From an uncultured Hyphomicrobiales bacterium (GTDB lineage Bacteria > Bacteroidota > Ignavibacteria > Kapaibacteriales > UBA2268), in contig CAZDXB010000007.1 in NCBI GenBank assembly GCA_964509335.1, forward strand, positions 44,882 to 108,881: a stretch of 64,000 nucleotides of DNA, in the 5' to 3' direction. A program made the translations under genes and the position numbers. The notes under the pieces were generated by a model, which was not told the DNA's origin, ran no database searches, and saw only the letters and a program-made list of their open reading frames with translations. Each line of letters begins with the position of its first letter. The stretch's first letter is position 1. Of this stretch, positions 3,856 to 52,543 are shown in pieces.

Positions 3856-3873
3856 TAGCTGATTTTTCAACTC

Positions 3874-3920: not shown

Positions 3921-3945
3921 TTCTAAAAACGCTTATTCTATAATC

Positions 3946-3975: not shown

Positions 3976-4031
3976 CGCAAGCCTGAACGGCAACGTCGAA
4001 CGGTCTGTTCGCCCCGTTTTACAATTGATTC

Positions 4032-4441: not shown

Positions 4442-4654
4442 TTACCATTCTAAGCTTTTTGAGCAGTCGTCTAATTTTTCTTTTGAAGCTTCTATAATTG
4501 AATCGGCGACGCCGGGAATACTTTCCAGATATTCAGTGTCGCTTTCTTTTTTATGCTTTTCTTTCAAAAAAATGGCGTAGTCAAGCAAATCTTGAAGATA
4601 ATAGTATGGTATTTCGTCGATTATCTTTATCAAATTTGATTGTAAACGGTTCAT
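4442..4654 (-). CDS. Putative antitoxin partner of YoeB (small acidic protein, not obviously YefM-like)
   Basis: 70-aa ORF whose stop abuts the yoeB start (4442/4441). Acidic C-terminus. The organisation is typical of a type II TA operon. Confidence 0.5.
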   Translation of the reverse strand: MNRLQSNLIKIIDEIPYYYLQDLLDYAIFLKEKHKKESDTEYLESIPGVADSIIEASKEKLDDCSKSLEW

Positions 4655-4808
4655 ATTTTTGCTAAATTAATAATTTGAACTAACTTAATTAAGTAATATA
4701 ACGTAAAAGAGCGTTTCATATTTCATTCACCTCTTCCAATTGGGAAAAAAATCGTATATTATAAACGTTGTTTTGCAAATAAAAGACGCTCCGCGTCAAT
4801 TCTTATTC

Positions 4809-10162: not shown

Positions 10163-11356
10163 ATGAGCGGTTCAAAAATAATACCGGCGGAGAAGACTAA
10201 AGGCATAACCTACGCTATCAGAGATATAATAGTAATAGCGAACGAAACGGCTAAAACCGGCAAGGAAATGATGTATCTAAACATCGGCGACCCAAACGCA
10301 TACGACCACGTAACGCCGCCTCATATAGTAGAAGCGGTTTGCAAGGCTATGCGCGACAACAAGAACGGCTATTGCCCATCTTCGGGAATACCGGAAGCTC
10401 TCGACGCGATAGTCGAGGACGCGGAGTCAAAAGGAATTACAAACGTATTGGACGCGTTCGTAACTTCCGGGGCGAGCGAGGCGATAGAAATTTGCTTGAC
10501 GGCGTTGCTGAACAAAGGCGAGAATTTTCTGATGCCGACGCCGGGGTATCCGCTATACACGGCGGTTCAGAGCAAATTGGAATTGGAGCCGAATCCTTAT
10601 TATCTGGACGAGTCGAACGGTTGGCAACCCGACATCGAGGACATTAAATCTAAGATAAACGATAAGACGCGCGCTATTGTAGTCATTAATCCAAACAACC
10701 CGACAGGTTCGGTCGCTTCGAAAGAAATTTTAGAGCGAATCGCGGAAATAGCTATCGAAAATAATTTGCTCGTCATAGCCGACGAAATTTACGATAAACT
10801 ACTTTTCAGCGGCGAGAAGCACGCTTCGATAGCGTCGTTGAGCGAAGATTTGTCTTGCGTAACCTTTTCCGGTATGTCGAAAAACTACGTCGTTCCCGGT
10901 TTCCGTTTGGGTTGGGGCGTAGCGAGCGGAAAAAAAGAAGAGACGGCGAAATTTATAGAAGCCGTCAATAGAATACTTCGAGCGAGAGTTTGCGCCAACC
11001 ATCCCGAGCAATACGGAGCGATAGCGGCTTTGAAGGGCGAACAAACTCACTTGAAAAAAATGAACGAAACTTTGAAGCGGCGAAACGACTTGACGGTAAA
11101 ATATCTTAACGAAATACCGAGAACTTCGTTAGTTCAGCCGAAGGGAGCGTTTTACGCTTTTCCGAGCGTAGAAGTCGAGGACGATTTTCAGTTCGTCAAA
11201 GATTTGATTAAAGCTACCGGCGTAGTTGTAGTTCCCGGTTCAGGATTTGGTCAAAAGTCCGGGACAACGCATTTCAGAGCGGTTATATTACCCGACGAAG
11301 AAACGATAGAGAAATCTTATAAATTGATAGGCGACTTTTTAGCGGATTACAAATGA
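10163..11356 (+). CDS. PLP-dependent class I/II aminotransferase (alanine/aspartate aminotransferase-like)
   Basis: Track ORF 10088 starts at TTG. ATG at 10163 has an AAAAGGAAGG RBS. Motifs LNIGDPN, ...NPNNPTGSV and the PLP-lysine context FSGMSKNYVVPGFRLGW. Confidence 0.8.
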   Translation: MSGSKIIPAEKTKGITYAIRDIIVIANETAKTGKEMMYLNIGDPNAYDHVTPPHIVEAVCKAMRDNKNGYCPSSGIPEALDAIVEDAESKGITNVLDAFVTSGASEAIEICLTALLNKGENFLMPTPGYPLYTAVQSKLELEPNPYYLDESNGWQPDIEDIKSKINDKTRAIVVINPNNPTGSVASKEILERIAEIAIENNLLVIADEIYDKLLFSGEKHASIASLSEDLSCVTFSGMSKNYVVPGFRLGWGVASGKKEETAKFIEAVNRILRARVCANHPEQYGAIAALKGEQTHLKKMNETLKRRNDLTVKYLNEIPRTSLVQPKGAFYAFPSVEVEDDFQFVKDLIKATGVVVVPGSGFGQKSGTTHFRAVILPDEETIEKSYKLIGDFLADYK

Positions 11357-14422: not shown

Positions 14423-15361
14423 ATGAAACGGTTAAATTTAATTCTCGCCGTTCTCTTTTCCGGTCTTATCATTTTCGGTTCTTGCGAGGAGGAATCTTCG
14501 GGTCCTTCTTGCAACACCGATATAGACGACAGAGTAGCCGATTTATACGATTGTCCGCCCGACGCCGGCAATTGTTACGAGGGCGACCTCGCGCAAAGGG
14601 TGCAAGACGACGTTTTAGAGCGAGTCAACTATTTCAGAAATATTCACAATTTGCCGGACGTATCCTACAATCCAACCTTCGACGATTACGTTCAAAAAGC
14701 TTCTCTTATTGCCGCCGCGAACAAGGCGCTAACGCATTACCCGAGCGAATCGGCAAAATGTTATACAGCCGTCGGCGATACGGGCAGCCAGAAAAGCAAT
14801 TTAGCTCTTTCTTGGAGCGGCGGATTTGTAGATAAAGCATCCGAGTATTTTGTAGATGGATGGATAAGCGAAATCCACTCTGCCAGTATCGGACACAGGC
14901 GTTGGATTCTACATCCTTTTTTAAATACGGTTTCTTTCGGCAGGGTGGATAGTTTTGAAGAAGGACACGTCGTCGGTTCGGCGTTATACGTAATGGATTC
15001 GAAATCGCCAAGCCAAGCAAACGTAGAGTTCATAGCTTGTCCGTTCCATAATTATCCATCGTCCGCTTTTCCGAATAACGCGCGATTTTCTTTTCAAATT
15101 CTCGCCGATAAGGATTCGCCTTGGGGCGCTAACCGAAACGTAGATTTTTCTAACGCGAGCATAGAGGTTTACCAAGGCTCGCCGGATAATTCGCTCTCCG
15201 TTAATTCCGTTAAATACGACAACGATGGATACGGTTTGCCGAATTGCATTCAATGGAAAACAAGTACGTTTTCCTACGGGGCGAGATATACGGTTAACGT
15301 TTCGAACGTTATTGTCGGCGGCGAATCAAAAGATTACGAATATTGGTTCGAGATTGATTAA
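14423..15361 (+). CDS. Lipoprotein with CAP/SCP-like domain (tentative)
   Basis: Signal peptide ending IIFGSC (lipobox-like). VNYFRNIHNLP resembles the CAP2 motif and GHRRWILHP is a CAP1/3-like motif. The assignment is weak. Confidence 0.4.
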   Translation: MKRLNLILAVLFSGLIIFGSCEEESSGPSCNTDIDDRVADLYDCPPDAGNCYEGDLAQRVQDDVLERVNYFRNIHNLPDVSYNPTFDDYVQKASLIAAANKALTHYPSESAKCYTAVGDTGSQKSNLALSWSGGFVDKASEYFVDGWISEIHSASIGHRRWILHPFLNTVSFGRVDSFEEGHVVGSALYVMDSKSPSQANVEFIACPFHNYPSSAFPNNARFSFQILADKDSPWGANRNVDFSNASIEVYQGSPDNSLSVNSVKYDNDGYGLPNCIQWKTSTFSYGARYTVNVSNVIVGGESKDYEYWFEID

Positions 15362-31644: not shown

Positions 31645-34035
31645 ATGCGAAAGATGAAAAATAAAAGCTTGACTGGGGCTATAATCGCGATTATAGTAAC
31701 GGCGATTTGTATTTTTCAAACGCCGTTGTTAGCGAAAGGGCGCTTGGATAGTTTGACCAAGTCGCTTCAAGCCGCTGATTACGAGGACAGCGCCGAGATA
31801 TATAATGAAATATCCGAAAAGTATTTAGCCGAATCCCCCAAAAAGAGCATAGCTTTCGGCAAAAAGGCTTTGATGGTCGCCGAAAGAAACAACGACGAAG
31901 CCTTAAAAGCCAGAGCCTATATGTCTATCGGAGCCGGGTTCGAGTTTCAAGAGCAATACGATTTGGCTTTGTCTTATTACAAAGACGCTTTGTCGATTCA
32001 AAAGAAAATTGGCGACCAAAAAGATATTTCGAGGTCTCTAAACAATATCGGGGTTTTATATCAAAAAGCGGGGAATTTAGATTCAGCCGCCAAATATTAT
32101 GAAATAGCCTTGAATATTAAAGAGAAATTTAGCAATTACGAAGAGATAGCTAAAACGCTATATAACTTGGGTTCGGTTTATTCAATAAAGGGAGAGTATA
32201 ACAAAGCCATAGAATTTTTTAATAGACTGCTTAAAATACAAAAGAGACTTTCGAACAAAGAAGAACTCGCGAATGTTCACAACTACTTAGCCTATTCTTA
32301 CCAAAAAGTTGGCAAATACGACGCCGCTTTAAACAATTATTTGTCTGAATTGAAATTACGAGAGGAACTGAATCAAACCGAAAACGTCGAGAGATTCTTC
32401 TCGAAAATCGGGAAAATATACTACCAGATGCAGAATTACGAGAAGGCTATCGAATATTATAACAAAGCTTTGTTGATTGTTAAAGATAAAGACGAGGAGA
32501 TGGAAACGGCGAAGACTCTATCGAATCTAGGCAACGTTTATTACGAGGCAAAAGACTTTCGGGAAGCTTTGGAATACTATAAAAAATCGTTAAAAATAAC
32601 GGAGGACAAAGAGCAGTCCAGCGAAGACTTTAAATTGAGCGACAACGCCTTAAGGGGCAAGGCAATTCTTCTTAACAACTTGGGTTTGGTTTATAAAAAT
32701 TCCGGCGATTACGAAAAAGCGCTAGTTTATTGCAAAAGAGCAATTGAACTGAAAGACTCGATAAGCGAAGACAGCGACATTTTCTATCCGCTCACAAGCT
32801 TAGCCGAGATTTATTTGAAATTGGACAAACCCCAAGAAGCGCTAAATAACCTCGAAAAATCACTCGATATAGCCGAGCGAAAAGACAATATAAATTTAAA
32901 GAAAATCGCCCGAAAATTGCTCTACGAAGTTTACGCGAAAATCGGCGATTACGAACATGCTCTTGAAAACCATAAGAAATACTCCGCTCTAAAGGACAGC
33001 ATCTTGAACAAAACGACTAATAAGATAATTTCGGAGATGCAGGTCAAATACGAGACGAAAAGAAAAGAGCAGGAAAACAAAGCTCTGAAACGCGTAAACG
33101 AGACTCAGCGAAATTATTTTATAGTAATATCCGCTCTGATACTAATTATTTTAGGCGTTCTATATAGTAGATACAGAGGCAAGCAAAAAGCCAACAAGAT
33201 GTTGCGCGATATGAACAAGCAAATCAAAAAGCAGCACGGCGAGTTAGAATACATGTTTTCGCAATTGCAAGCGAAAGAAGAGCGATTGCGAGAAGCCAAC
33301 GCCACAAAAGACAAATTCTTTTCAATAATAGCGCACGATTTGAAGAATCCCTTGCAAGCTATAACCTTGTCGGCGGATATGCTGAAGAACAAATATAGAT
33401 ACATGGAAGCCGAGCAATTGGTTTCGCTAATCGGTAACATCAATAACGCCGGCGAGCATCTGTCCTCGCTTTTGGAAAATCTGCTGCAATGGTCGAGAAC
33501 GCAGAACGGAAAAATCAAGTATTATCCAGAGGAAATAGATTTAAAGGTCGTGGCGAAAGAGAACGTACAACTGATTTCCGCTTACGCCGAAAAGAAAGGC
33601 GTAAAAGTAAAAAGCGACATCGCCGCTCAAAAGAGAGCTTTTATCGACAAAAACATGATAAGCACCGTATTCCGCAATTTGATTTCCAACGCCGTTAAAT
33701 TTACCGAGGAAGACGGAGAGGTCAACTTGTCGGTAAACGAAAAAGATTTGTTTTACGAGGTGGCGGTAAAGGACACCGGAGTCGGCATAAGCGAAAAAGA
33801 CTTAGATACATTGTTTAGAATAGACGCTCATCGCACAACCAAAGGCACCCGCGACGAAAAAGGCACTGGCTTGGGCTTGATTTTATGCAAAGAATTCGTC
33901 GAGATGAACGGCGGAAGGATTTGGGCTGAAAGCGAGCTTGGCGAAGGCTCGACATTCTATTTCACCGTCCCGAAATTTATGAAAGACAAAAACAAAGGAC
34001 CGAGAGACGACGTTAATATCGTTAATATGAATTAA
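31645..34035 (+). CDS. TPR-repeat sensor histidine kinase (signal peptide, ~12 TPR units, TM, HisKA, HATPase_c; no receiver)
   Basis: 796 aa. Repeated A..YY..AL.I....G TPR pattern. TM NYFIVISALILIILGVLY. H-box FFSIIAHDLKNPLQAI. G-boxes DTGVGIS and GTGLGLILCKEFVEMNGGRIWAESE. Confidence 0.8.
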   Translation: MRKMKNKSLTGAIIAIIVTAICIFQTPLLAKGRLDSLTKSLQAADYEDSAEIYNEISEKYLAESPKKSIAFGKKALMVAERNNDEALKARAYMSIGAGFEFQEQYDLALSYYKDALSIQKKIGDQKDISRSLNNIGVLYQKAGNLDSAAKYYEIALNIKEKFSNYEEIAKTLYNLGSVYSIKGEYNKAIEFFNRLLKIQKRLSNKEELANVHNYLAYSYQKVGKYDAALNNYLSELKLREELNQTENVERFFSKIGKIYYQMQNYEKAIEYYNKALLIVKDKDEEMETAKTLSNLGNVYYEAKDFREALEYYKKSLKITEDKEQSSEDFKLSDNALRGKAILLNNLGLVYKNSGDYEKALVYCKRAIELKDSISEDSDIFYPLTSLAEIYLKLDKPQEALNNLEKSLDIAERKDNINLKKIARKLLYEVYAKIGDYEHALENHKKYSALKDSILNKTTNKIISEMQVKYETKRKEQENKALKRVNETQRNYFIVISALILIILGVLYSRYRGKQKANKMLRDMNKQIKKQHGELEYMFSQLQAKEERLREANATKDKFFSIIAHDLKNPLQAITLSADMLKNKYRYMEAEQLVSLIGNINNAGEHLSSLLENLLQWSRTQNGKIKYYPEEIDLKVVAKENVQLISAYAEKKGVKVKSDIAAQKRAFIDKNMISTVFRNLISNAVKFTEEDGEVNLSVNEKDLFYEVAVKDTGVGISEKDLDTLFRIDAHRTTKGTRDEKGTGLGLILCKEFVEMNGGRIWAESELGEGSTFYFTVPKFMKDKNKGPRDDVNIVNMN

Positions 34036-34195: not shown

Positions 34196-34869
34196 TTAAG
34201 GTGACAGGCGCTAACGATAGGCGGATAACCGACACGCTTTAGCGGTCGGATATCCTTTTTCGGCGATATCGAGCGATGGCAAATAGTTAAAGAGACTGTC
34301 TCGAAAGCAATAAATTCATACACGGGGGGCAAGCCCCGTGTGCTTCCAAAGTAAATCAGCGTAAAGCGATGGAATATAAACTTATCAGTCAATATTGAAA
34401 GGACGCATCGGGGCTAGCCCCGATGTAATATTTAAGTTTTTTAGGCAGTCGCTTCAGTTGTCGGCTTTCGTCAAGCGGCTTCTTAGCGTTAGCGGAAAGC
34501 TAAAGCTTTCCGTTTCCTTGGATTGCGAAGACGGGGGCGTCTTCGCTACTCTGTTTTGAAAAAATAAAAATAATATTTGGATTGTATAAATTTTGTTTTT
34601 ATATTTGTATTGGAATGTTATAAGTTCATATATATATATGATTTACAAAAACAAATAGAGGAGGCGTAAATTTGCCGGACATAATAGTTATAGAATGCCA
34701 AAGATTAAAACTGCCAAAATAAAGGACCGGCGAGAGTAAGCCGCGTCGCCGGTCCAATTATTGCGTCAACGCGCGTTCCCGAGTTTAAGATGTTATATTC
34801 GCGTTATAACTGCGGCTCGGGAACGCCGCCTATAATAACAATTACAAATTTAATAAAAAGGAAAGAGTT
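34196..34869 (+). promoter_or_regulatory. Long conserved non-coding leader, copy 1: ~100-bp conserved block (34196-34300), ~260-bp hairpin-rich unique segment, then ~310-bp block (34560-34869) with AT-rich promoter-like region, SD-preceded 16-codon uORF (34672-34722) and two GC-rich stem-loops (34724-34755; 34773-34826)
   Basis: 34560-34886 is ~95 % identical to 38566-38891, and 34196-34300 is ~85 % identical to 38336-38440. Hairpins GGACCGGCGA-N12-TCGCCGGTCC and GCGTTCCCGAG-N32-CTCGGGAACGC are identical in both copies. The uORF AGAGGAGG-7nt-TTG is MPDIIVIECQRLKLPK. Confidence 0.6.
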
Positions 34870-35457
34870 ATGAAAAAGATAATTTTGTTAATAATAGGTT
34901 TAATGTTTTTATCGTTTGTAATTTTGAAATCGCAACCAGCTTGCGAGCCTTGTTCATCTCAAACTACTTGGGCAAATGCACCTGTTAGTGTTTTACACGT
35001 TGTAATATCTGGTTCGGGATGCGAATTTGACGTTGAATACCAAACAATATTCTGCCTGACAGATGGAACTTGTAATTTTAGAATATTAAAACTCTACAAT
35101 ATTTTGGAGGCTTGCGACGGTTATGGTCCATTGGAATTACTAGAACAAGCGGCGCTGCAAATTATAAAAAACGATGGTATGTTCAAACAATGCTGGCCAT
35201 CTGGCTCTGGAGATTGTGTAGAACAAACTAGAGAGTGGTCCGCGGCTTGCTGGAAGTGGAAAGGAAACGTTGGTCCAGGACCGGGAACTACAGCTACGCT
35301 TAAGCCTTGCGAAACAGAGTCCTGTTGCGAATCCTATTATATGATTTGTAATGAAGGAGGAGCAATTATTGTTTATAAAACATATACAGAGGCAACTCAT
35401 CCTTGCGTGAATCCCGGTCCTGAGTGCTTTATAAGATGTGATTCTGGAGAAAAATAA
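34870..35457 (+). CDS. Cysteine-rich secreted protein (195 aa, ~19 Cys), uncharacterised family; paralog of 38875-39450
   Basis: Signal peptide MKKIILLIIGLMFLSFVILKS. C.PC near the mature N-terminus and the motif GCEFDVEYQTIFC match C.C and HCVFEAYYC in the paralog. The first 17 nt of the CDS are identical to the paralog, as part of the duplicated leader. Confidence 0.6.
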   Translation: MKKIILLIIGLMFLSFVILKSQPACEPCSSQTTWANAPVSVLHVVISGSGCEFDVEYQTIFCLTDGTCNFRILKLYNILEACDGYGPLELLEQAALQIIKNDGMFKQCWPSGSGDCVEQTREWSAACWKWKGNVGPGPGTTATLKPCETESCCESYYMICNEGGAIIVYKTYTEATHPCVNPGPECFIRCDSGEK

Positions 35458-35467
35458 GGAGTAAAAT

Positions 35468-35992
35468 ATGAAAAAAATAATGTATATAATCGTGATGGCG
35501 TTAATGTTAACGATTATTTCGTCGGAGCAAAAATTAGACGCCAAAACAATATCGTTTGACGAAATTAAATACAAAACGTTTATTTATTATAACTTAGAAG
35601 ATAATTATGTTAAAAGATTTTACGAAGGATATTCTCTTAAAGAATACTTGCCGGTTAAAAAAGTAAAAGAGATAAAAAATAATCTGGAAACAATAAGGAA
35701 TGATAGCCAAGCTAAAATAGAAAATTTCGATTGTTTCAACGTCGATATAAGAATTTATCCGAATCCCGCTAGTAGTTATTTTAACGTTTCGCTAAATTCT
35801 GACGACGATATTAAGGAAGTGAAGATAGAGATAATAGACAAATTGGGAAGAACTATTCGCGTTTACAATCGCGAAGGATTGAAAGGAAAAAATAAAGTTA
35901 GAATAGATTTAAGCGGCGTTGAGAAAGGTAGCTACATAGTTAGAGCGGCAATAGGCTCGGCGATGAAAACGGCAAAATTAATCGTTTATTAG
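35468..35992 (+). CDS. Small protein consisting mainly of a T9SS C-terminal sorting domain
   Basis: 174 aa, signal peptide. The C-terminal ~80 aa IRIYPNPASSYFNVSLN...IEIIDKLGRTIRVYN...IDLSGVEKGSYIVRAAIGSAMKTAKLIVY matches the T9SS type-A CTD pattern. Confidence 0.6.
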   Translation: MKKIMYIIVMALMLTIISSEQKLDAKTISFDEIKYKTFIYYNLEDNYVKRFYEGYSLKEYLPVKKVKEIKNNLETIRNDSQAKIENFDCFNVDIRIYPNPASSYFNVSLNSDDDIKEVKIEIIDKLGRTIRVYNREGLKGKNKVRIDLSGVEKGSYIVRAAIGSAMKTAKLIVY

Positions 35993-36062: not shown

Positions 36063-38219
36063 ATGAAACGAAATATAATGTTATCAATATTAATATTTAC
36101 CGCTTCTTTCGCCGTTTGTTTTTCCCAGTTAGTTCCAAAATGGGAAATTGGCGCAGCGTCATTTACTCATAATGAATACAGATACGACGGATACCAATTT
36201 AATAAAATAGCGGGAACGAGTGAAAACGATATTATCGTTTTAGGTCAAAGTTACAATGCTGAAAATGGTTATTTTCCTGCAATTTGGCGTTTTAAAAATA
36301 AAGCCGACGAAAGAGAAATATTATATACAGACACAACTAAACAAGATAAAGGCCCCGATATCGCTACTCACGAGTTTAGGTCAATCGCGAAACCCGCACA
36401 TAACTACATAATCGCCGTCGGGGATTCTAACAAATATCAAGGAGAGTTTAAAGTCGAAGGAAAATTCGGCGAAGCTTGGCAAGAGTTTTATTTTAGAACT
36501 GGTTTTATGTTAATCTCAACCGACGGCGGCGAAAGTTGGAATAAAACAACGCTCGATTCTAACACCAAGTTAAACGAGGTAAGAATGCTCGATAACGACT
36601 ATGGGGTAATACTCGAGGAAGGTTGGGAGAATTATTACAACCAAAGAGAATTAATAAATAACGACACTTTGCTAATAACTAAAGACGGATGGAAAACATA
36701 CGAACAAATAAAACTTCCAGAAACAATAGAATATCCGGACGATATTTTCATTTTATCAAAGGATACGTTGGCTATTTTATGCTGGGACGCGGACACAAAA
36801 CGAACGTTTATTATTTTTTCCTACGACGGCGGCAAAAATTGGGAAGACGAATTTTACTTCGACGAAACCGTTCGTATTCAGGATATTGAATTTATAGGAA
36901 ACAAAGCTTACGCCGTTGGATGGTACGAACCGAGTTTATTGTCCGACACCGTTACTAATCCTTATGTTGATATTTCCGTTCAATTTCCTTATATCGCTTA
37001 TAGCGAAAATCGCGGACGTTCTTGGAGAAAACTCGAAAGCTTTCCAGTAGAAATTAACGATATAATTAAAGATTACGGACATAGGTTATACAGCGTTGAT
37101 TTTTGCGACAGTATAAACGGTATCGTAAGCGGATTTAGCGACAGTGCGAATCCTTACGTTTTTAAAACGACCGACGGCGGCGAAAGTTGGGAACGAGAAT
37201 ATTTGCCCTTTAGTTATCACAATCAAGCTTTGCTTATGAATATATATTTTCCGAGAAAAAATTACGCTCTAGTTTTTAATCAATCCAGATATGTTTACAA
37301 ATATGAAGGCGATAAACTTTTGGCTATGCCGAAATTTTATAAATTTAGCAACGTTCCAATAGAGAATTTGAAATTGAGATGGGCGTCGATAGAAGGGGCT
37401 AAAAATTATAGAATAAAAATTGACAGCACGAGAAAATGGTTTAGCGAATCTACCGGAATTAAAACCTATCCCGAGCCGGATTTCGAAAGTCCAATTATCG
37501 ATACTACAATAGCAGATACGTCTGTACTATTTGAGAAACTTATGTACGAATCGCGCATAGTCGCTTTTGTGAAAGCTATCGGCGAGTCGAGAGAAAGTTA
37601 CTGGCGTCGCTATATATTTGTAACTAATACTAGAGAAAATTATTTATATCAACCGAAGTTTGTATTTCCTAAATCTGTTACGATTATACGTGAATCGAGA
37701 GCGGAATTTAAATGGCGCGCTGTTAAGCCCGCAACCAAATATTACTTGACCATAGAAAATAAAGCTAACAGAGAAGTAATATTCAGGGATACGTTATCAG
37801 CCGTAGATACTAGCGTCGTAGTAATCGGTTTCGAGCCGAACACGGGTTATATGGCGCGTTTAGAAGCGACGAGAGGAAATGAATCATCCGGGGACTTAGC
37901 TTTTTTTATAACGGCGACGGAGTTGCCTGTTAGAGAGCGCAAAGAATACGAACCGATAACGAGTTTACGTATTTACCCTAACCCGACTTATTCTAGTATT
38001 AATCTTTCCGTGAATTTAAAAAGCCGAAGCAAAATTGAAATAGATTTGATAAATAGTTGGGGTTCAAAAATTGACAGGATATTTGGCGGTTATCAAACTG
38101 ACGGTTGTCATACTTTCCGCCATGCGCCGGAACCGGATTTGCCATCGGGAACGTATTGGATACGAGCGACTATTGACGGAGAGAAGCAAGTAGCAAAGCC
38201 GGTTGTGATATTAAAATAG
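36063..38219 (+). CDS. BNR/Asp-box repeat beta-propeller protein with FN3-like domains and T9SS C-terminal sorting domain
   Basis: 718 aa, signal peptide. Asp-box repeats STDGGESWNKT, SYDGGKNWEDE, TTDGGESWERE. FN3-like segments (KLRWASIEGAKNYRIKID; EFKWRAVKPATKYYLTIEN). C-terminal LRIYPNPTYSSINLSVN...VVILK CTD. Confidence 0.7.
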   Translation: MKRNIMLSILIFTASFAVCFSQLVPKWEIGAASFTHNEYRYDGYQFNKIAGTSENDIIVLGQSYNAENGYFPAIWRFKNKADEREILYTDTTKQDKGPDIATHEFRSIAKPAHNYIIAVGDSNKYQGEFKVEGKFGEAWQEFYFRTGFMLISTDGGESWNKTTLDSNTKLNEVRMLDNDYGVILEEGWENYYNQRELINNDTLLITKDGWKTYEQIKLPETIEYPDDIFILSKDTLAILCWDADTKRTFIIFSYDGGKNWEDEFYFDETVRIQDIEFIGNKAYAVGWYEPSLLSDTVTNPYVDISVQFPYIAYSENRGRSWRKLESFPVEINDIIKDYGHRLYSVDFCDSINGIVSGFSDSANPYVFKTTDGGESWEREYLPFSYHNQALLMNIYFPRKNYALVFNQSRYVYKYEGDKLLAMPKFYKFSNVPIENLKLRWASIEGAKNYRIKIDSTRKWFSESTGIKTYPEPDFESPIIDTTIADTSVLFEKLMYESRIVAFVKAIGESRESYWRRYIFVTNTRENYLYQPKFVFPKSVTIIRESRAEFKWRAVKPATKYYLTIENKANREVIFRDTLSAVDTSVVVIGFEPNTGYMARLEATRGNESSGDLAFFITATELPVRERKEYEPITSLRIYPNPTYSSINLSVNLKSRSKIEIDLINSWGSKIDRIFGGYQTDGCHTFRHAPEPDLPSGTYWIRATIDGEKQVAKPVVILK

Positions 38220-38239: not shown

Positions 38240-38313
38240 TTCCGTCCGCTCCAGCGGCGGAACGCATATTGAGACGCTCCGCGTCGTTTTTTCTTTGCCG
38301 CGCAGAGCGCGGG
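38240..38313 (+). repeat. REP-like element family 1, extended copy d (three hairpins: GTTCCG..CGGAAC, GACGCTCCGCGTC+T6, CCGCGCAGAGCGCGG)
   Basis: Begins 21 bp after the 36063-38219 stop. The long form is shared with copy e. Confidence 0.8.
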
Positions 38314-38335: not shown

Positions 38336-38874
38336 AGGGCGCTAACGATAGGCGGTAAACCGACACGCCTTAGCGGTCGGCAATCGTATCGCGGCAATAT
38401 TGAGCGCTGGCAAATAGTTAAAGCTATCGGTTGCCGAAAGATTACTTTGAAATATCGCATAGTTTTTGTGCGTATAAACCAATATAATATAAAATATTTA
38501 TAGAATATCTATGTTCACATGTGAACATTTTCAGCCCGCTATGTTCATATGTGAACATAGCTTAAATAATAAAAATAATATTTGGATTGTATAAATATTG
38601 TTTTTATATTTGTATCGGAATGTTATAAGTCCATATATATATATGATTTACAAAAATAAATAGAGGAGGCGTAAATTTGCCGAACATAATAGTTTTAGAA
38701 GGGCGAAGATTAAAACTGCCTAAATAAAGGACCGGCGAGAGTAAGCCGCGTCGCCGGTCCAATTATTGCGTCAAAGCGCGTTCCCGAGTTAAAGATGTTA
38801 TATTCGCGTTATAACTGCGGCTCGGGAACGCCTCCTATAATAACAATTGCAAATTTAATAAAAAGGAAAGAGTT
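38336..38874 (+). promoter_or_regulatory. Conserved non-coding leader, copy 2 (100-bp block 38336-38440; unique AT-rich segment with two perfect palindromes at 38511-38528 and 38539-38560; 310-bp block 38566-38874 with uORF 38677-38727 MPNIIVLEGRRLKLPK and the same two stem-loops)
   Basis: See copy 1. Palindromes ATGTTCACATGTGAACAT and CTATGTTCATATGTGAACATAG, read directly. Confidence 0.6.
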
Positions 38875-39450
38875 ATGAAAAAGATAATTTTAATATCGAT
38901 AACAATAGTCTTATTAGGATTAACTTTTAGCGCTAATAAGCTTAACGCACAGTGCGATTGCCCTCAAGACATACCGCCAACGAATATACCTTGGACTGTG
39001 GAAGGTCCCCATTATATCTTCATATACGACGACGAAGGTGACCATTGCGTTTTTGAGGCATATTATTGCTGGCGTAAAATTCTAGATTATTATCCGTCGC
39101 CGGAAATTCAAGTTGTTGTTTGTAAATATAGTCCTACGGAAGATTGCAACGAGAATTTTAATCTTTCGGTTTGGGAAATATATAAAAAATTGGGAATAAA
39201 AATAATTGAATTAAATCCAGATAATTTAGATTGGCCCGCTCCACCTTGTCCATATGGTTATCCATATTACTCAGTAGTAACTTTCGGTTGCTATGATGTA
39301 TATGACGAAACCCCGTGCGGCGGTTTAGTGTATTGTAAATACTTATTTGAAGTTTGTATGAGTGCGGGTCAAAGGATAACTAAGCCATTAGGAGCGACGA
39401 CGGTTGGAGACGAATGTCCGGTCGGGTGCGATAACAAATGCGGCGATTAA
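38875..39450 (+). CDS. Cysteine-rich secreted protein (191 aa, ~18 Cys), divergent paralog of 34870-35457
   Basis: Signal peptide MKKIILISITIVLLGLTFSANKLNA. Mature QCDCPQD...; HCVFEAYYC; C-terminal ECPVGCDNKCGD. Confidence 0.6.
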   Translation: MKKIILISITIVLLGLTFSANKLNAQCDCPQDIPPTNIPWTVEGPHYIFIYDDEGDHCVFEAYYCWRKILDYYPSPEIQVVVCKYSPTEDCNENFNLSVWEIYKKLGIKIIELNPDNLDWPAPPCPYGYPYYSVVTFGCYDVYDETPCGGLVYCKYLFEVCMSAGQRITKPLGATTVGDECPVGCDNKCGD

Positions 39451-39476: not shown

Positions 39477-41954
39477 ATGTCGATTACAAAATATATTTTA
39501 ACAACGATAACAATAACTATAATCTTAGTTAATCCGTTGAAAGCCGAAAAGAAAATTGTTTGGCAAAATACAATATCGCGAATTTTGGATTGTCAAGTTA
39601 TCGATTCGCAGAATTACGTGATAGTCGGCGACGACGGCAAGATAATCTCGACGAGCGACGGCGGTTTTACTTGGCGATGGTTAGAATGCGGTTTGAGAAA
39701 TATATTTTACGGCGTAGATTTCCTCGACAAGAATACGGGCGTCGTTGTCGGCGACGGCGGCGCCTTCACCGCCACTACCGACGGCGGCGAGACTTGGCGT
39801 ACAGAAACTATAGATACGACCGCGTTTTTTTCGGTCGAAATGAAGAGCAAAAACGCGATATTCGCAAGCGGAATGAATACTTGTATTTACAAATCGAGCG
39901 ATTTCGGCGAGACTTGGAAAAAGGTTTTTAGCGGCGATAACGCCGTATTAGAAAACTATTTTTTCTTTAAAGACAGCATAAAAACAATAAAAGCCTATTC
40001 AAACAATAGCGATATTCATTTTGTAAACGACTCTATCGGTTTTGCCGCGGGCGTCGGACCTTTCGTTTTAAAAACCGAGGACGGCGGGGAGAGCTGGCGC
40101 AAAGTTCTGCAAAAAGGAGACAGCGCTCTATTTACGGATATCGACTTTTACGACGATAAACGCGGCGTAGCGGCGGGAGGCGATTTCGTATATAACGATT
40201 CGTTAAACTATGGGTATTTAAAAGCGAAGGCGTATTATACATTGGACGGAGGAGAAAACTGGATAGAAATGGATGCGCCGGGAGCGGGGCATTATATAGG
40301 CGCGAAGATGTTCGATAGCTCTTATATATATTTACTCGGCGGAACTCATTGGTCTCATATAACTAAAGATTTCGGTAACAGTTGGCGAAAAATTAAGTTT
40401 ATCGATTACAAATACTTCAAAAACAATCTGGACACTGATAATTATAAAGATACGACCGCGGCTTGGGGATCTGATTATACGCCGACAGCTATGTCCTCCG
40501 ATAACGAAGGGGTTATATTGTCTATCGACAAACAAGGAGTGATAATGAAATCGACCAATTTCGGCATAAATTATCAAACTTTAAAGAAGTTTGAAATGTA
40601 TGAATTTATTGGACATTATTTTAGACGCATTCACGGTTTTGCATCGCTTTCGGAAAACAAAGCGTTATTTTTTGGCGAGGAAAGCAAAGTTTATAGAACT
40701 TCCGACGGGGGAACAAGCTGGGACATTATTTTCCCTCGTTATGAAATAAAAAACTGGGATGATAAAGAATTTTGGAGTAGTATTTCATCGTCCAACGCTT
40801 CTTTTTATACTAGTTATTTACCCGATAGCGCGAACGGTTTCATTGCAGGCAAACTCGACGGTTGGAAGCCGTCAAATACGATATTTACTTCCGACGGCGG
40901 CGAAACTTGGGATATCGTAAATAATTTGAAATCGAAGAGCCTTAGTTTTATATCAAGAGATACAGGATTCGCAATAGGTTACGATTCATTACTTTTAAAA
41001 ACTGAAAATTTTGGGCTTAGTTGGGATACTCTGAGAATTTTTCATAGATCGGGCGATTATAATGAACGGCAACTTAACAATCGACCTCTACAAATAGTTT
41101 TTCCCGACTCAAGCGCCGGATATCTAATCATTAATTCAGCTTATATAAAAACAAACGATACGATTACTTATCCTACGGGTTATAAAGGGATCTCTAAGCT
41201 TTATAGAACTACAGACCGCTGGCAAACTTTCGATTCAATTTTTTGCGAGGAAACTCGCTGGCCCTTCGATAAAATTCACTTTATGGATAAAAATACGGCG
41301 TATATTTTTAGCGGCGACCATAAAACAATCTATAAAACGACCGACGGTTGCAAGACTTGGGATACGCGTATGCTTCCGGGAAATTACCATTTCGTAAACG
41401 ACGTTCATTTTATAGACGAAAATTTCGGGGTCGCCGTGGGGCGGCAGGACACAATATTTACTACGCGAGACGGCGGAAAATCTTGGGAAATAAAAGTTCT
41501 GCCTTTTAATAGAAATTATTTTGGCGATAAAAGGGGGGAGGATTTATATGATTTTATAGAAATAACCGAAGCAAAAAACGGTGATTTGTTTATTGTTGGC
41601 AAGGGCAGGGTTGTTAGAGGGTTAATAATAAACGACACGACGACGGTAGAGGGCCAAACGGAAGGCGGCAGGTATTGTCAGTTTTATTACATCACGATTA
41701 TCCCAAATCCTGTTAAGGGAACAGCGAAAATAAATTTATATGGATTGACACAGGCTAAGGGGCATAAATTGAGCTTAAAAATATACGATATAAACGGAAA
41801 TTTCGTTAAAGATATATCTAAGAAGGCGAACGCCAACAGCGATGGCAAAACCGCCGAGTTTGAAGTTAATTTGCACGGTTTGCCGAGCGGCATATATTTT
41901 ATTCAATTGGAGAGCAACAGCCGGACTAGATCCCGGAAGTTTATAAAGTATTAA
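39477..41954 (+). CDS. Large BNR/Asp-box repeat (Ycf48/sortilin-like) double beta-propeller protein with T9SS C-terminal sorting domain
   Basis: Track start 39438; ATG 39477 gives signal peptide MSITKYILTTITITIILVNPLKA. At least 12 Asp-box-like repeats (SDGGFTWRW, TDGGETWRT, SDFGETWKK, EDGGESWRK, LDGGENWIE, SDGGTSWDI, SDGGETWDI, TDGCKTWDT, RDGGKSWEI ...). C-terminal IIPNPVKGTAKINLYGL...FIKY CTD. Confidence 0.7.
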   Translation: MSITKYILTTITITIILVNPLKAEKKIVWQNTISRILDCQVIDSQNYVIVGDDGKIISTSDGGFTWRWLECGLRNIFYGVDFLDKNTGVVVGDGGAFTATTDGGETWRTETIDTTAFFSVEMKSKNAIFASGMNTCIYKSSDFGETWKKVFSGDNAVLENYFFFKDSIKTIKAYSNNSDIHFVNDSIGFAAGVGPFVLKTEDGGESWRKVLQKGDSALFTDIDFYDDKRGVAAGGDFVYNDSLNYGYLKAKAYYTLDGGENWIEMDAPGAGHYIGAKMFDSSYIYLLGGTHWSHITKDFGNSWRKIKFIDYKYFKNNLDTDNYKDTTAAWGSDYTPTAMSSDNEGVILSIDKQGVIMKSTNFGINYQTLKKFEMYEFIGHYFRRIHGFASLSENKALFFGEESKVYRTSDGGTSWDIIFPRYEIKNWDDKEFWSSISSSNASFYTSYLPDSANGFIAGKLDGWKPSNTIFTSDGGETWDIVNNLKSKSLSFISRDTGFAIGYDSLLLKTENFGLSWDTLRIFHRSGDYNERQLNNRPLQIVFPDSSAGYLIINSAYIKTNDTITYPTGYKGISKLYRTTDRWQTFDSIFCEETRWPFDKIHFMDKNTAYIFSGDHKTIYKTTDGCKTWDTRMLPGNYHFVNDVHFIDENFGVAVGRQDTIFTTRDGGKSWEIKVLPFNRNYFGDKRGEDLYDFIEITEAKNGDLFIVGKGRVVRGLIINDTTTVEGQTEGGRYCQFYYITIIPNPVKGTAKINLYGLTQAKGHKLSLKIYDINGNFVKDISKKANANSDGKTAEFEVNLHGLPSGIYFIQLESNSRTRSRKFIKY

Positions 41955-41974: not shown

Positions 41975-42051
41975 CGTTCCGCCCGCTCCAGCGGCGGAAC
42001 GCATACCCAGACGCTCCGCGTCGTTTTTTCTTTGCCGCGCAGAGCGCGGGG
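41975..42051 (+). repeat. REP-like element family 1, extended copy e
   Basis: GTTCCGCCCGCTCCAGCGGCGGAACGCATACCCAGACGCTCCGCGTCGTTTTTTCTTTGCCGCGCAGAGCGCGGG, 21 bp after the 41954 stop. Confidence 0.8.
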
Positions 42052-48508: not shown

Positions 48509-51500
48509 TTATTTGATAATATTCAAAAAATTTGTTGATTCTACCATAATTCCGTCTTTATTTATCGCTTTTAGACGATAATAATAAGCTCCGCTAGTTA
48601 GATTTTTTCCGTTGTCGTCTTGGCAATTCCAACGTATTTCGGTTTTATATTTCGTTTGCGCTTCGCTCGATAGGGTAGATACGATTCTGCCCAAAGCGTC
48701 GCGCACGGTAATTTCGTAATCGAACGGCGGGTTTATAGTGTGATTAAAACTGAAAGTCAAGCTTGAACTAGCGGGATTTGGATAGGTCGTAAGATTATGA
48801 ATAATCAATCCGTCGCAAGACGCGGTTCTGAAGTAGGTCTCGGTTATCGAAAAGTTGTTGAACACGTCCCAAGCGCGAATTTTTATTTTATGTAGCCCGG
48901 GTTCCAAATCATACAGGATTTTTGTCGCTTCTCCCGAACGTGAATCTCCGAAAGAAGCGGAGAAGTTATCAGTTAAATCGATAGATTTGCGCGCGTCGTC
49001 TATCCAAGCTTCGATATTATGTCCTAAACCTATGCCTGTGGCGTTAATGCCGCTCTCGTCTGATAGCTCGACGATTAGCGTAGGCTCGCAACTAACGTAA
49101 TCGCCGGAAACGAACTCTTTTGAGTCTAAATAAACTTCGATTTCCGGTCCTCTGGAATCTGCGTGTGTGGTAGTATCAAGCCCGTCTATTATAAATTTGC
49201 GAGTGTCGCCTTTAGCAAATCTGTCGTCGTCGGAGTAAGCGTAAACTAAAAGTCTGCCGGGTTCGCCGGAAAAACTAATATCCTTCGGAATAATAAACTC
49301 GCTCGTAAATTTTCCGTTCTTAACTTCGCAGGAGCTTTGGTTTAGCGTTCCGCCGTATTTTGTGAAATGATGAGTCGTGCCGTTCGGAGAGCCGTCGTCT
49401 TCGAAAGCTCTTATTTGTTTGTCGCTATCGAGCATAGTGATTATTGCCGTTCCGTTGAATGTTTCGTCCGTAACGGTTGAAGACGCAGAAGTTACGCTTC
49501 CTTCAATCGTTACTTCCGACAAACCTTTCAATTTAGCCGTGTCTCCTTTTGATACGTTTACGTCGTTAATCTTGTTAATACGAGCGTTGTATTCGGGAAT
49601 TAGTATTTTTATCGTGGGGTCGCCGAGCAAACAGTATTTTTTGTCGTTCCTTTTATACTTTTCGTATTTTGTAATCATATTCACTACGCCTAAAGAGAAA
49701 TATTCGCCCGTTTCTTCGTTTTTTTCGAAGAAATTTCGGTAAAGAGTTTCGTTAAGCCTAGCGTTTGGGTCTGCAAATACGAGTCTCGTCGAAGAGAAAA
49801 CGCCTATGGCTCCGCCTCGCTCGCTAAGCAATAATTCTTCGGCGCCGCTTCTTATCTCCGGCGAATCGAATCGTCCGAAGTCGCAACTGGCGGCGGTGGC
49901 GAAAAATAATTTATCGAGATTAGTGAATTGCGGAATCGTTAAACTCCTCTCTAAGATTTCTTCGTGCGCCCAAACTCTTGGATTTCCGTGTCCAATATAG
50001 CATAAGAATAAGTTGCCGTCGTTATTGGAAGCCGAGAGCATTTCCTGAGTTACGCGCGGTTTTCTTTTGCCGCCGGTAACGCTTTCGCTTGGATATTCTG
50101 CCATATAGATTTTATTTACTCGCAAAAAATTCGGGAGATGATTTCTACATAGCTGTTCAGCGTCGTTTGTATGCAAGGTTCCGTCGGTAGAACCGCTTTT
50201 TTTCCAGCTATCGTCGGCGACGACCGTTATATTAGTTCTCCAAGAGTCCTCGCTCGATTCGTTTTCGTATTTACCGATTTTTTCTATCATCCAATTTCCC
50301 TCGCCGTTGGATTGAACGGGGATTCTGCCCAGCGCTATATCGATTAAGTCGTCGTCGCCCGCTATATTGGCGAAAAAGTCGTCGCTTGTGTAAGAATCAA
50401 TTTCGTCGTAAGAAAAAGAACTATTCGGTATTTGATAAGTCGGCGCGTAATTTTTCTCGTCCGTTCCTATTAACTTATAGTCGTAATGCCCGTCGCCCCA
50501 AAGCAAAACATATTTCGGCTTGCGCTCCCAACGGTCGAAAGCGTCCGCTATAAAATCTCTTATCGCCGTCGGGTCGGGCGTTCCTGAATTATATTCGTTG
50601 TAAATTTGAGTCAATGTCGCTATAAAAACTGAAATGTTCGAGCGCTCTTCTCTATATTCTTTATAATTGTTCGCCGATTCGAGTAAGTCTTTATGCGTTA
50701 TTAAAATTAAGTCAGAGCCTTTGCTCTCGCCCCTTAAGTTAGCGAATTCGGCTATTTGCAGAGACGGTTCTTTTATTTTTGAAGAAATGAAAAACTTCTT
50801 AGGACGATTTGCTTCCGTCTCGTTTTTAAAGCGGAACATTCCGCCGGTAACCGCTTTGTTTTCGATTAGTTTCGGATTCGCCGCGTCGGTTGTTTCAAAA
50901 CCGTAGATTTCCCCGCCGGAAAAGCCGTTTGTTAAGTATTCAACTACTCCGTCGTTTTCGGGATTTGAAAAGAAACTTAATTCATTGTTTATCGGCTCTA
51001 GATAGGCGGGATAGTGGATTTCATACCAATCGAAGTATCCTTGCGCTCCGCCGTCGCCGGAATAGTTTGTGTATTCAAATTTCAACGAGCTTCTGTTGTC
51101 AGCCGATACGTAGGAGGCGGGAGCTTTCGCGGTAACTTCTTCTCGTTCGGCGTCGTCGTGTCCCGAAGTTATTTTTAAATGCGCCTCGCATAACTTGTTG
51201 TCGTTTTCGTAGATGTCGAAAGTTCCAGTGTAGGGAGCGCGGTGCGCCACTGAAAAGCGGTAGAATATTTCGCCGTCTCTTTTCAAATTATTTAGTCGCT
51301 CGACAAACACAGCCGGCAACAAGTTCCTGCCGAACCAAGCCCTTCCCGAACCCGCGATATAAGCGTTGTGCATCTCTTCTTCGTAAAATATTCTTCTGGT
51401 ATAGGTATTCGGTTCGTAATCGGCTTCATATGTCGGTTGAACAATCGGTTCGGCTCTTTTGCCCGAATCGCCCGACCAAGTCAACATATAATAAGAGTTC

Positions 51501-52543
51501 TCGCTGAAATGGTTTATGTAATGACGGAATCCATTTGCGGAGTCGTATTTAAAACCCGAAGCGGGCGAGGCGTAAAAGATTATTTTATCCAGCGTTCCGT
51601 CGCCTTTTTTTTTGACGATTATTTCTTGTTCGTTCATTTCGTTGTTTACCGCGTCGGTTACGTTTTCGCTTAATTGCAAACCGCCGTTTCCGTAAATCTT
51701 TATTTTATGGATGTCTTCTTTGGGTATTAAAAATCCCAAGTTGTTTAATTTTCCTGCGGTTATTTGATAAACGCCCTCTTCCTCGATTTTTATTTTTACC
51801 CAGTCAGCGTCTGTTTCCGATTGAGTGTGGGATTTTTTAAGCGACAAGTCCGATTCTAAATTTTCTTTTATCAGCCAAGATTTAGTTTCGTTGTGGTTTA
51901 AGGAAAGGGGCGGGTCGAATATTCGTTCATTATTATAATAAGCGCCGCCTTCAGATTGGCTGTTGAATTTAATCTCGACGGTAATTTTTTTGGGGATTAA
52001 TATCGCTTTTTGTTCGGAAGAATATTTAGCGGCAATCAATTGAAGTTTTGCTAAGTGGCGATGACGGGAAATCCCCGAATACGATAATTTCGCCCAAACG
52101 ATATTGTTGTTTCGCCTGTAATCTTGCTCGTCGGTTATATAAATAGCGTGATAATTCCCGTCCAATTTATAGCGCATAGGGTAGGGAACGATTTTAACCG
52201 GAATTTTCTTAAACCCTGAAATATCATAATCGATTAACTCGAATCCTTCGGGATTTGGAACGGTTATGAAACTTTCGCCGACATACGTAGTCGGCGCGCC
52301 CGCTCCGCCGTTAAGAGAAGTCGCGTTGGTGAATTTTGGACGGACTAATCTTTGCCCGTCGGCGGCGTCGATAGTGTCTAACGCGACAAAATCAGGCTTG
52401 AAAACAAGCGTCAAACTTTGCTTGTTGGAATGAACGACTTGCCAGCCGTCTTTTGCCGATGATATAGAATAAGCGCTCGCGGTTAAAAAAGTAAAAGCCG
52501 CGACTATATATAGAGCCTTTTTAAGTTTACTTAAAATCTTCAT
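48509..52543 (-). CDS. porU: T9SS C-terminal signal peptidase PorU-like (gingipain-family C25 peptidase domain + CTD)
   Basis: 1344 aa, signal peptide. C25-like catalytic region with His (LFLCYIGHGNPRVWAHEEIL) and Cys (FFATAASCDFGRFD). YVLLWGDGHYDYK region. C-terminal CTD-like ...LIIHNLTTYPNPASSSLTFSFN...FLNIIK. Confidence 0.7.
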   Translation of the reverse strand: MKILSKLKKALYIVAAFTFLTASAYSISSAKDGWQVVHSNKQSLTLVFKPDFVALDTIDAADGQRLVRPKFTNATSLNGGAGAPTTYVGESFITVPNPEGFELIDYDISGFKKIPVKIVPYPMRYKLDGNYHAIYITDEQDYRRNNNIVWAKLSYSGISRHRHLAKLQLIAAKYSSEQKAILIPKKITVEIKFNSQSEGGAYYNNERIFDPPLSLNHNETKSWLIKENLESDLSLKKSHTQSETDADWVKIKIEEEGVYQITAGKLNNLGFLIPKEDIHKIKIYGNGGLQLSENVTDAVNNEMNEQEIIVKKKGDGTLDKIIFYASPASGFKYDSANGFRHYINHFSENSYYMLTWSGDSGKRAEPIVQPTYEADYEPNTYTRRIFYEEEMHNAYIAGSGRAWFGRNLLPAVFVERLNNLKRDGEIFYRFSVAHRAPYTGTFDIYENDNKLCEAHLKITSGHDDAEREEVTAKAPASYVSADNRSSLKFEYTNYSGDGGAQGYFDWYEIHYPAYLEPINNELSFFSNPENDGVVEYLTNGFSGGEIYGFETTDAANPKLIENKAVTGGMFRFKNETEANRPKKFFISSKIKEPSLQIAEFANLRGESKGSDLILITHKDLLESANNYKEYREERSNISVFIATLTQIYNEYNSGTPDPTAIRDFIADAFDRWERKPKYVLLWGDGHYDYKLIGTDEKNYAPTYQIPNSSFSYDEIDSYTSDDFFANIAGDDDLIDIALGRIPVQSNGEGNWMIEKIGKYENESSEDSWRTNITVVADDSWKKSGSTDGTLHTNDAEQLCRNHLPNFLRVNKIYMAEYPSESVTGGKRKPRVTQEMLSASNNDGNLFLCYIGHGNPRVWAHEEILERSLTIPQFTNLDKLFFATAASCDFGRFDSPEIRSGAEELLLSERGGAIGVFSSTRLVFADPNARLNETLYRNFFEKNEETGEYFSLGVVNMITKYEKYKRNDKKYCLLGDPTIKILIPEYNARINKINDVNVSKGDTAKLKGLSEVTIEGSVTSASSTVTDETFNGTAIITMLDSDKQIRAFEDDGSPNGTTHHFTKYGGTLNQSSCEVKNGKFTSEFIIPKDISFSGEPGRLLVYAYSDDDRFAKGDTRKFIIDGLDTTTHADSRGPEIEVYLDSKEFVSGDYVSCEPTLIVELSDESGINATGIGLGHNIEAWIDDARKSIDLTDNFSASFGDSRSGEATKILYDLEPGLHKIKIRAWDVFNNFSITETYFRTASCDGLIIHNLTTYPNPASSSLTFSFNHTINPPFDYEITVRDALGRIVSTLSSEAQTKYKTEIRWNCQDDNGKNLTSGAYYYRLKAINKDGIMVESTNFLNIIK

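Follow-up and report, generated by a model that had tools for sequence, protein, structure and literature searches.

Cys-rich exported proteins encoded ahead of type IX-secreted propellers in an uncultivated member of the Bacteroidota: a new family of candidate cargo partners

To our knowledge, cargo-specific helpers for type IX secretion systems (T9SS) have been described in only a few cases, namely the potempins and the PorP/SprF-like proteins. The potempins of Tannerella forsythia are small exported proteins encoded immediately 5' of each T9SS-secreted KLIKK peptidase, with which they form stable and specific complexes; they are outer-membrane lipoproteins of 98-132 aa with OB (oligonucleotide/oligosaccharide-binding) or 8-stranded barrel folds, and they inhibit the peptidases (PMC9890683). 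The SprF/PorP-like proteins, which are encoded beside cargos that carry C-terminal domains (CTDs) of type B, act as cargo-specific T9SS accessories (PMC9143113). Here we describe two Cys-rich proteins, A and B, encoded in 64,000 nucleotides of DNA ("the window", i.e., the whole stretch that was analysed) from an uncultured Hyphomicrobiales bacterium (GTDB lineage Bacteria; Bacteroidota; Ignavibacteria; Kapaibacteriales; UBA2268; NCBI GenBank assembly GCA_964509335.1, contig CAZDXB010000007.1, positions 44,882 to 108,881 of the forward strand). Each of the two genes stands at the head of a cassette whose main product is a beta-propeller protein with a T9SS CTD. A and B are, in our assessment, paralogues separated by deep divergence, and by sequence comparison the family to which they belong is new to the curated databases and previously undescribed. 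With confidence and doubt in roughly equal measure, we favor the reading that this is a family of disulfide-locked exported proteins that serve as cargo-specific partners of the T9SS propellers with which they are encoded.

As in the potempin system, the gene for a small Sec-exported protein without a CTD lies 5' of the gene for a T9SS cargo, and several paralogous cassettes are present per genome; co-transcription and partner specificity are known for the potempins, and here the arrangement is read from the genes only. Unlike potempins, the proteins of the new family are ~165 aa long in their predicted mature form, lack a lipobox, would contain 7-9 disulfides, show no sequence match to potempins and are paired with propellers that are not peptidases; the likeness appears to be one of logic and not of homology. 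The arrangement also recalls the SprF/PorP-like proteins in that each paralogue of a T9SS cargo has its own adjacent accessory gene, although those accessories are outer-membrane beta-barrels for type B CTDs and the product in this case is a small soluble disulfide-rich protein beside cargos with type A CTDs (TIGR04183). In sortilin, a Cys-rich 10CC module fused at the C-terminus of the Vps10 beta-propeller packs on that propeller. The cassettes similarly combine an Asp-box propeller, which in cassette 2 matches Sortilin-Vps10 (6e-17), with a small disulfide-rich module; here, however, the module would be a separate polypeptide encoded upstream and has no match to Sortilin_C, which makes sortilin an analogy only.

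An earlier note on this DNA had drawn attention to A and B as a divergent family of secreted proteins with ~19 Cys each. Both open reading frames (ORFs) lie on the + strand where it had placed them (Table 1), but the counts are 16 Cys for A and 14 for B. The density of Cys is far above chance: 8.2% of the residues in A and 7.3% in B are Cys, versus 1.0% across the window's 36 ORFs with 150 aa or more, among which the runner-up reaches 2.8%. Signal peptides of A, B and the other family members were judged by eye from the sequence. A and B both start with MKKIIL followed by a hydrophobic core, as the note had said, and the probable sites of cleavage by signal peptidase I (SPI) lie between LKS and QPAC in A and between LNA and QCDC in B. 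The identity of the MKKIIL segments, which had been offered as a family trait, is nevertheless a matter of DNA-level and not protein-level conservation, since the DNA repeat that covers the two leaders (see below) reaches ~7 codons into the ORFs. The Cys pair expected at the mature N-terminus is present as CxxC in A (C25, C28) and CxC in B (C27, C29), and the C-termini (PECFIRCDSGEK in A, ECPVGCDNKCGD in B) are rich in Cys as described. The motif said to be shared by A and B holds only approximately, reading G-C-E-F-D-V-E-Y-x4-C in A and H-C-V-F-E-A-Y-Y-C in B, and it corresponds to a strand, C..V.YCWR, that is conserved in the family. Neither protein has a Pfam match at E<=1 (and thus none to Sortilin_C) or an NCBIfam match. 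The absence of a T9SS CTD from A and B also stands: Por_Secre_tail was matched in neither of them nor in any of 27 family members, versus matches in all three of the genes that lie downstream in the cassettes, two of them above the Pfam cutoff and the third, the 718-aa propeller protein, just below it (25.4 versus 27 bits). The idea that the Cys-rich proteins are themselves T9SS cargo was rejected because they have no CTD, and the idea that they are lipoproteins was rejected because there is no lipobox, the residues before and including the first Cys being LKSQPAC in A and LNAQC in B.

Relatives of these proteins are scarce. In word-indexed searches A found only itself, B found one homologue with 59% identity, and a 28-sequence profile retrieved only 4 proteins. 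A profile built from B and its 59% homologue, searched exhaustively with HMMER, gave 28 matches among 1.84 billion representative proteins (clusters), of which 26 were judged genuine on inspection of the sequences, the other two being long repeat proteins. All 26 are stand-alone proteins of 96-216 aa (mostly ~190); four are truncated, and the rest measure ~185-216 aa and have signal peptides; taken together, members that have a signal peptide span 173-216 aa. The residue predicted at +1 is Gln in about half of the family and one of Q, D, S or T in most of it; Gln at +1 fits the Q-rule for SPI substrates of the Bacteroidetes (PMC5837995). The family is marked by a conserved framework of Cys and by the motifs CP.DIPPT..W, C..V.YCWR, NP.NL.WPCPPCP, PC...YC..Y.VCC..G.R and G..C..GC...C, and B scores 173.9 bits against a family hidden Markov model (HMM) whose alignment (A4) includes B. 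The one member for which a public name was found is labelled "hypothetical protein". A scan of genome contigs added a single relative, in a metagenome-assembled genome (MAG) of the Bacteroidetes/Chlorobi group from ChocPot_Mid, and a scan of metagenomes added three further loci. No Pfam match was obtained for any of 27 members at E<=0.01 and the family profile had no match among PDB sequences; the statement in the earlier note that its author did not recognise the family is in line with the Pfam, NCBIfam and PDB comparisons, which gave no well-known domain (e.g., thioredoxin-like). A role in anti-phage defence was considered and rejected, there being no PADLOC match.

The relationship between A and B is difficult to discern if only these two proteins are compared. 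In BLASTP they align with E=0.011, mostly over the signal peptide, mature A aligned to the two-sequence profile gives a nonsignificant hhalign E=0.22, and the profile of B failed to retrieve A from the representative library. Such results would be expected if A and B were unrelated and owed their likeness only to the shared leader (MKKIIL) and a Cys-rich composition. Against a 27-member profile, however, the hhalign E-value is 7.6e-9 for full-length A and 5.6e-4 (probability 30%) for mature A, the alignment of the latter being co-linear over nearly the entire domain, and the HMM score of mature A was reached by 3-4 of 5,000 shuffled sequences (shuffled in full or with the Cys positions fixed). 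A bridge between the two is provided by a five-cassette metagenome locus, L004. The small protein of its second cassette (4634-5272) resembles A (GCDFDVVFC; BLASTP 2e-6), and the mature region of the same protein matches the family profile with an hhalign E-value of 1.8e-6 (probability 90%); the small protein of cassette 1 of L004 matches that profile at 9.4e-11. When these two bridging proteins were included in the profile and A was left out, mature A scored 13.1 bits, a score that was reached by none of 10,000 shuffles that preserved composition or Cys positions (z=6-7). A is also second only to B against the family HMM among 424 stop-to-stop ORFs in the window. The check by structure prediction that the earlier note had proposed for both paralogues yielded weak AlphaFold2 models (mean predicted local distance difference test score, pLDDT, 62.9 for B and 45.5 for A) that place the predicted elements in a common order, namely three strands, a helix and, within the Cys-rich C-terminal half, two paired strands. 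The position in the operon is likewise the same. We therefore regard it as very improbable that A and B are unrelated; the claim that they are divergent relatives is upheld, with A, which lacks the YCWR and WPCPPCP motifs, as an outlier subtype.

That these are disulfide-rich exported proteins, as had been suggested from Cys density, is supported by two properties of the alignment. Of the 23 members that are complete, 20 have an even number of Cys in the mature protein (p=2.4e-4), the counts for A and B also being even, and certain Cys are gained or lost in pairs. Columns 185 and 234, which hold the first Cys of the WPC-PPC motif and the second Cys of the VCC motif, co-occur perfectly (14/0/0/9, p=1e-6), and columns 93 and 114 co-occur almost as strictly (10/1/1/11, p=1e-4). 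Even counts together with paired gain and loss point to structural disulfides and not to a CxxC redox site or a metal cluster. A CxxC motif (CPPC) is nonetheless found in most members, in keeping with a thiol-disulfide oxidoreductase (tryparedoxin-like WCPPC) or a periplasmic binder of metal or Fe-S. The first Cys of CPPC is, though, missing from 9 of the 23 complete members, including B, and it covaries with the distant Cys of VCC; the family has no thioredoxin-family match in Pfam, NCBIfam or PDB, and the predicted order of elements appears unlike that of the thioredoxin fold. The thioredoxin-like and metal-binding readings were rejected because CPPC is not conserved, because of the Cys covariation and because there is no thioredoxin-family match, and a redox or metal protein seems to us barely credible. 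The medium-confidence model of B, whose quality limits any comparison with the potempin folds, matched no known fold, with the potempin PotA appearing only at a Foldseek E-value of 1.8.

The evidence that bears most directly on function is the company that the small genes keep. The co-occurrence with BNR/T9SS cargo pointed out in the earlier note turns out to be a strictly conserved gene pair, in that the small gene has an Asp-box propeller gene on its 3' side in each of 14 cassettes, drawn from ~ten metagenomes or MAGs. These 14 comprise every cassette in which the small gene is intact and the DNA downstream could be read: the window contributes two, L004 three, and L001, L003, L007, L008, L009, L011/A11PutaV, L012, L014 and L015 one apiece. 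In 13 of the 14 no other gene lies between the small gene and the propeller gene, the exception being cassette 1 of the window, in which a gene for a 174-aa T9SS protein intervenes, and in the 13 cassettes tabulated the small gene is separated from the gene that follows it by 3-124 nt. The propellers that are complete and were scored have 711-831 aa and, with the exception of that in L012, match Por_Secre_tail. Neither a stand-alone copy of the small gene nor a domain fusion was found among the 26 representatives. The similarities among small proteins and among their propellers are correlated (Spearman 0.72, Mantel p=0.001). As best read from the genes, these comparisons show that whole cassettes have been duplicated and that the small gene and the propeller gene have diverged together under a common leader. 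Because they are always encoded 5' of a surface-secreted propeller, the Cys-rich proteins are most likely dedicated binding partners of the propellers.

Several observations weigh against such a partnership. The Mantel correlation comes largely from one orthologous clade (B, L001, L004 cassette 3 and L007), and plain co-inheritance of an operon would also yield it. A and its closest relative (L004 4634-5272) adjoin propellers that have no special similarity to one another, and the structure models are weak. In cassette 4 of L004 (11636-11743) the small gene has been reduced by internal deletion to a 35-aa remnant, in which the signal peptide is joined to the last 10 residues (...DCPGGCSSHCD), and the propeller gene is intact; a similar remnant in cassette 5 (~14818-14925) is deduced from 99% identical repeat copies spaced 3182 nt apart. 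A partner encoded in cis is thus not strictly needed, although cassette 3 of the same locus could supply a near-identical partner in trans. Finally, the propellers have no recognisable catalytic domain, which leaves nothing obvious to block.

Some of these points suit a different explanation, in which the Cys-rich protein is co-regulated with the propeller but independent of it, i.e., a separate periplasmic or released factor (ligand-binding or signalling) that takes part in the same process and does not bind the propeller. Co-inheritance alone suffices for the synteny and the co-divergence, intact propellers persist behind the small-gene remnants of L004, and the best conserved of the motifs, YCWR and NP.NL.WPCPPCP, are common to paralogues with very different propellers, a hint of a target other than the propeller. 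One-to-one pairing in every one of the 14 cassettes, with such short gaps, and the lack of stand-alone copies or fusions speak against an independent factor, and we consider it unlikely, though worth keeping in view. The lack of a catalytic domain bears instead on the possibility of a safety catch like that of the potempins, whereby the small protein would specifically inhibit some activity of the propeller (e.g., glycan binding or hydrolysis) during its periplasmic crossing or on the producer's own surface and so shield the producer's envelope. The gene order and logic are those of the KLIKK-peptidase/potempin pairs, with a CTD-less exported protein 5' of the T9SS cargo in several cassettes, the synteny is strict, and small disulfide-rich proteins are common inhibitor scaffolds. 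The cargos, on the other hand, matched only Ycf48, BNR and Sortilin-Vps10 propellers, and no catalytic family, in Pfam, NCBIfam and PDB comparisons; there is no lipobox, the predicted topology (three strands, helix, strands) seems unlike the potempin barrels as far as the model allows, and cassettes 4 and 5 of L004 retain a propeller without an intact small gene. We are inclined to discount the safety catch and see little prospect of its being correct.

If the Cys-rich proteins are indeed cargo-specific partners, events might proceed as follows. The Cys-rich gene would be first in a transcription unit whose main product is a BNR/Ycf48-like tandem propeller of 710-840 aa exported by the T9SS. 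The protein, with ~165 aa after removal of a signal peptide by SPI (often exposing Gln at +1), would be exported by Sec and locked by 7-9 disulfide bonds, and since it would be made in step with the propeller, the two would meet in the periplasm. Binding there would be cargo-specific, and the small protein would either remain in the periplasm, having escorted or blocked the propeller in transit, or travel to the surface with its propeller as a capping subunit. With a leader that is near-identical within the genome, all of the paralogous pairs would answer the same signal. We infer physical binding, the final location of the protein and the role of the complex, and the data fit an inhibitor, a chaperone or an adaptor without choosing among them.

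Table 1. Positions of the elements of cassettes 1 and 2 in the window.
Feature	Position	Strand	Description
Cassette 1 leader	34559..34869	+	promoter-like element, (AT)6, upstream ORF, two hairpins before ribosome-binding site
Cys-rich protein A	34870..35457	+	195 aa, 16 Cys, signal peptide, no T9SS CTD; highly divergent family member
Small T9SS protein	35468..35992	+	174 aa; Por_Secre_tail E=1.7e-15; TIGR04183 match
BNR/Asp-box propeller, cassette 1 cargo	36063..38219	+	718 aa; Pfam BNR, Sortilin-Vps10, PSII_BNR, Por_Secre_tail
Terminator-like hairpin GACGCTCCGCGTC + T-run, end of cassette 1	38273..38295	+	inside REP-like repeat
Cassette 2 leader	38564..38874	+	copy of cassette 1 leader
Cys-rich protein B	38875..39450	+	191 aa, 14 Cys, signal peptide, no CTD; typical family member
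Ycf48/BNR-like tandem propeller, cassette 2 cargo	39477..41954	+	PSII_BNR 4.7e-29, Sortilin-Vps10 6e-17, Por_Secre_tail 2.4e-12
Terminator-like hairpin + T-run, end of cassette 2	42010..42032	+	same sequence as at 38273

In each unit the leader is followed by the Cys-rich gene, the propeller gene and the terminator, with the small T9SS gene inserted before the propeller gene in cassette 1 alone (Table 1). With a leader at the head and a terminator-like hairpin at the end, each cassette appears to be a self-contained unit. The 174-aa T9SS protein consists of little beyond a signal peptide, ~70 residues and a T9SS type A CTD; its gene starts 10 nt past the stop codon of A, with a ribosome-binding site (RBS), AAGGAG, that overlaps that stop, and no equivalent was seen in the cassettes of the other loci. 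The 718-aa propeller protein contains an fn3-like region, a T9SS CTD and four Asp-box motifs. The ORF for the propeller of cassette 2 is open from 39438, and its longest form (838 aa) would overlap the end of B by 13 nt. An ATG at 39477 is preceded by the RBS AAGGA and leaves a gap of 26 nt after B, and the protein collection does not contain the form of 838 aa; the true start is probably 39477, giving a protein of 825 aa, the nearest PDB relatives of which are Ycf48 proteins (~2e-9). Some 6.5 kb downstream the window encodes a Peptidase_C25 protein of 1344 aa (48509-52543, - strand), a candidate PorU-like T9SS sortase that makes a T9SS plausible in this organism; its own match to Por_Secre_tail is weak and falls just under the Pfam cutoff. 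On the other side, a gene for a TPR-containing sensor histidine kinase (31645-34035, + strand) ends 835 nt 5' of the gene for A. Cassette 1 has also been assembled independently, as a 3427-nt contig (L017, Logan SRR7048228) that begins just 5' of gene A; the first gene called on it (2-601) is cut by the contig end, which fits breakage of the assembly at the repeated leader.

The leaders of the two cassettes form a DNA repeat of ~330 nt (~34559-34890 and 38564-38895) with 95% identity as scored over 300 nt (against 38564-38863). The identity has sharp edges, beginning just 5' of the promoter-like element and stopping ~7 codons into each ORF, and past ~codon 7 the coding DNA of A and B is essentially unalignable. 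Read by eye, the promoter-like element is of the Bacteroidetes type (TTTG...TAtaTTTG, ~34576-34608); it is followed by an (AT)6 tract (34628-34639) that has equal length in both leader copies, and there is no poly-C tract in the window. The upstream ORF has 16 codons, is preceded by AGGAGG and encodes MPDIIVIECQRLKLPK in one copy and MPNIIVLEGRRLKLPK in the other, 5 of the ~15 differences between the copies falling within it. Two strong hairpins, GGACCGGCGA...TCGCCGGTCC and GTTCCCGAG...CTCGGGAAC, are also present, and the leader folds better than each of 200 shuffled sequences (200/200, z=-3.5). The leaders had no Rfam match.

A similar organization is found in L004, where five tandem cassettes have leaders that are 94-99% identical (812-1150, 4312-4650, 7652-7990, 11287-11625 and 14469-14807). 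The first three of these cassettes share ~380 nt, from just 5' of the promoter to ~codon 5, and their coding regions are saturated with changes. A 5'-untranslated region (UTR) structure of ~110 nt (GCCCUGCAUCCCGGAGG...hairpin...CCUCUGGGAGAAGGGCAAAUAAAUAA), with three compensatory pairs, is shared by L004 (1026-1136 and four other copies) and L007 (5773-5883), which come from different organisms; nothing in Rfam matched this structure, which may represent a new cis-regulatory RNA. A covariance model of this structure found no match in the leaders of the window, which indicates that the leaders are lineage-specific. Leaders that are near-identical within a genome and little alike between genomes suggest that the regulatory region has evolved in concert, by gene conversion. 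Other repeats occur near two of these loci: L003 contains an unrelated tandem repeat (3280-4015, six copies of a 102-nt unit) ~1.7 kb 5' of its small gene, and L007 has 18/24-nt repeats (5033-5410) in an upstream ORF (4593-5633) that holds repeats of the HPEPVEG type.

In the vlp and vsp families of Mycoplasma, a conserved 5' leader and signal-peptide start precede mature regions that are divergent. The cassettes resemble these families in that a near-identical promoter, 5' UTR and first codons stand before divergent tandem genes, and in L004 a poly-C tract lies beside the promoter in cassettes 2-5 (9, 10, 8 and 8 residues, respectively), as does a similarly placed C8 in L014. Such a tract may be hypermutable. 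Unlike the situation with vlp and vsp, there was no sign that the cassettes are switched on and off, the tracts being identical in length in two samples (L004 and L005), and the window has only the (AT)6 tract, which does not differ in length between the leaders. A bolder proposal is that the cassettes make up an undescribed surface-variation system of uncultivated Bacteroidota/Chlorobi-group bacteria, in which tandem pairs of a disulfide-knotted cognate adaptor and a Ycf48-like double propeller, with gene-converted leaders and in some cases poly-C tracts, would switch or co-regulate T9SS surface complexes, the Cys-rich protein representing a T9SS accessory of a new class, one that lacks a sorting domain and leaves the cell together with its cargo; we would sooner doubt this proposal than adopt it.

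The DNA around the cassettes contains further repeats. An intergenic repeat resembling repetitive extragenic palindromes (REP-like; TTCCGTCCGCTCC.GCGGCGGAACGCATA...GACGCTCCGCGTC) is present in five copies of ~60-80 nt each (at 3875, 4123, 17252, 38240 and 41977), the last two of which provide both cassettes with their terminator-like hairpins. Besides the leaders, another block is conserved between the cassettes (34207-34292 and 38338-38423; 86 nt, 86% identity); it sits ~270-350 nt 5' of the leaders, from which it is separated by unalignable DNA. Just 5' of the leader of cassette 2 only, at 38509-38558, a near-perfect palindrome, CTATGTTCA(C/T)ATGTGAACAT, occurs twice in direct orientation with a spacing of 30 nt; the two copies resemble a paired operator for a dimeric regulator.

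The immediate impact of these findings is moderate, because the family has few members, all of them from uncultivated lineages, and its function is a predicted one. The leaders are a candidate new cis-regulatory RNA, and near-identical leaders before saturated coding sequences in two unrelated genomes offer a clean case of concerted evolution of a regulatory region. If the partner role is correct, the family would constitute a third, unrelated type of small T9SS cargo partner, and it bears on whether proteins that lack a sorting domain can accompany T9SS cargo. The class of cargo to which the family is linked, the Ycf48/BNR-like propellers, is large and widespread, and the family may offer a handle on what these propellers do outside photosynthesis.

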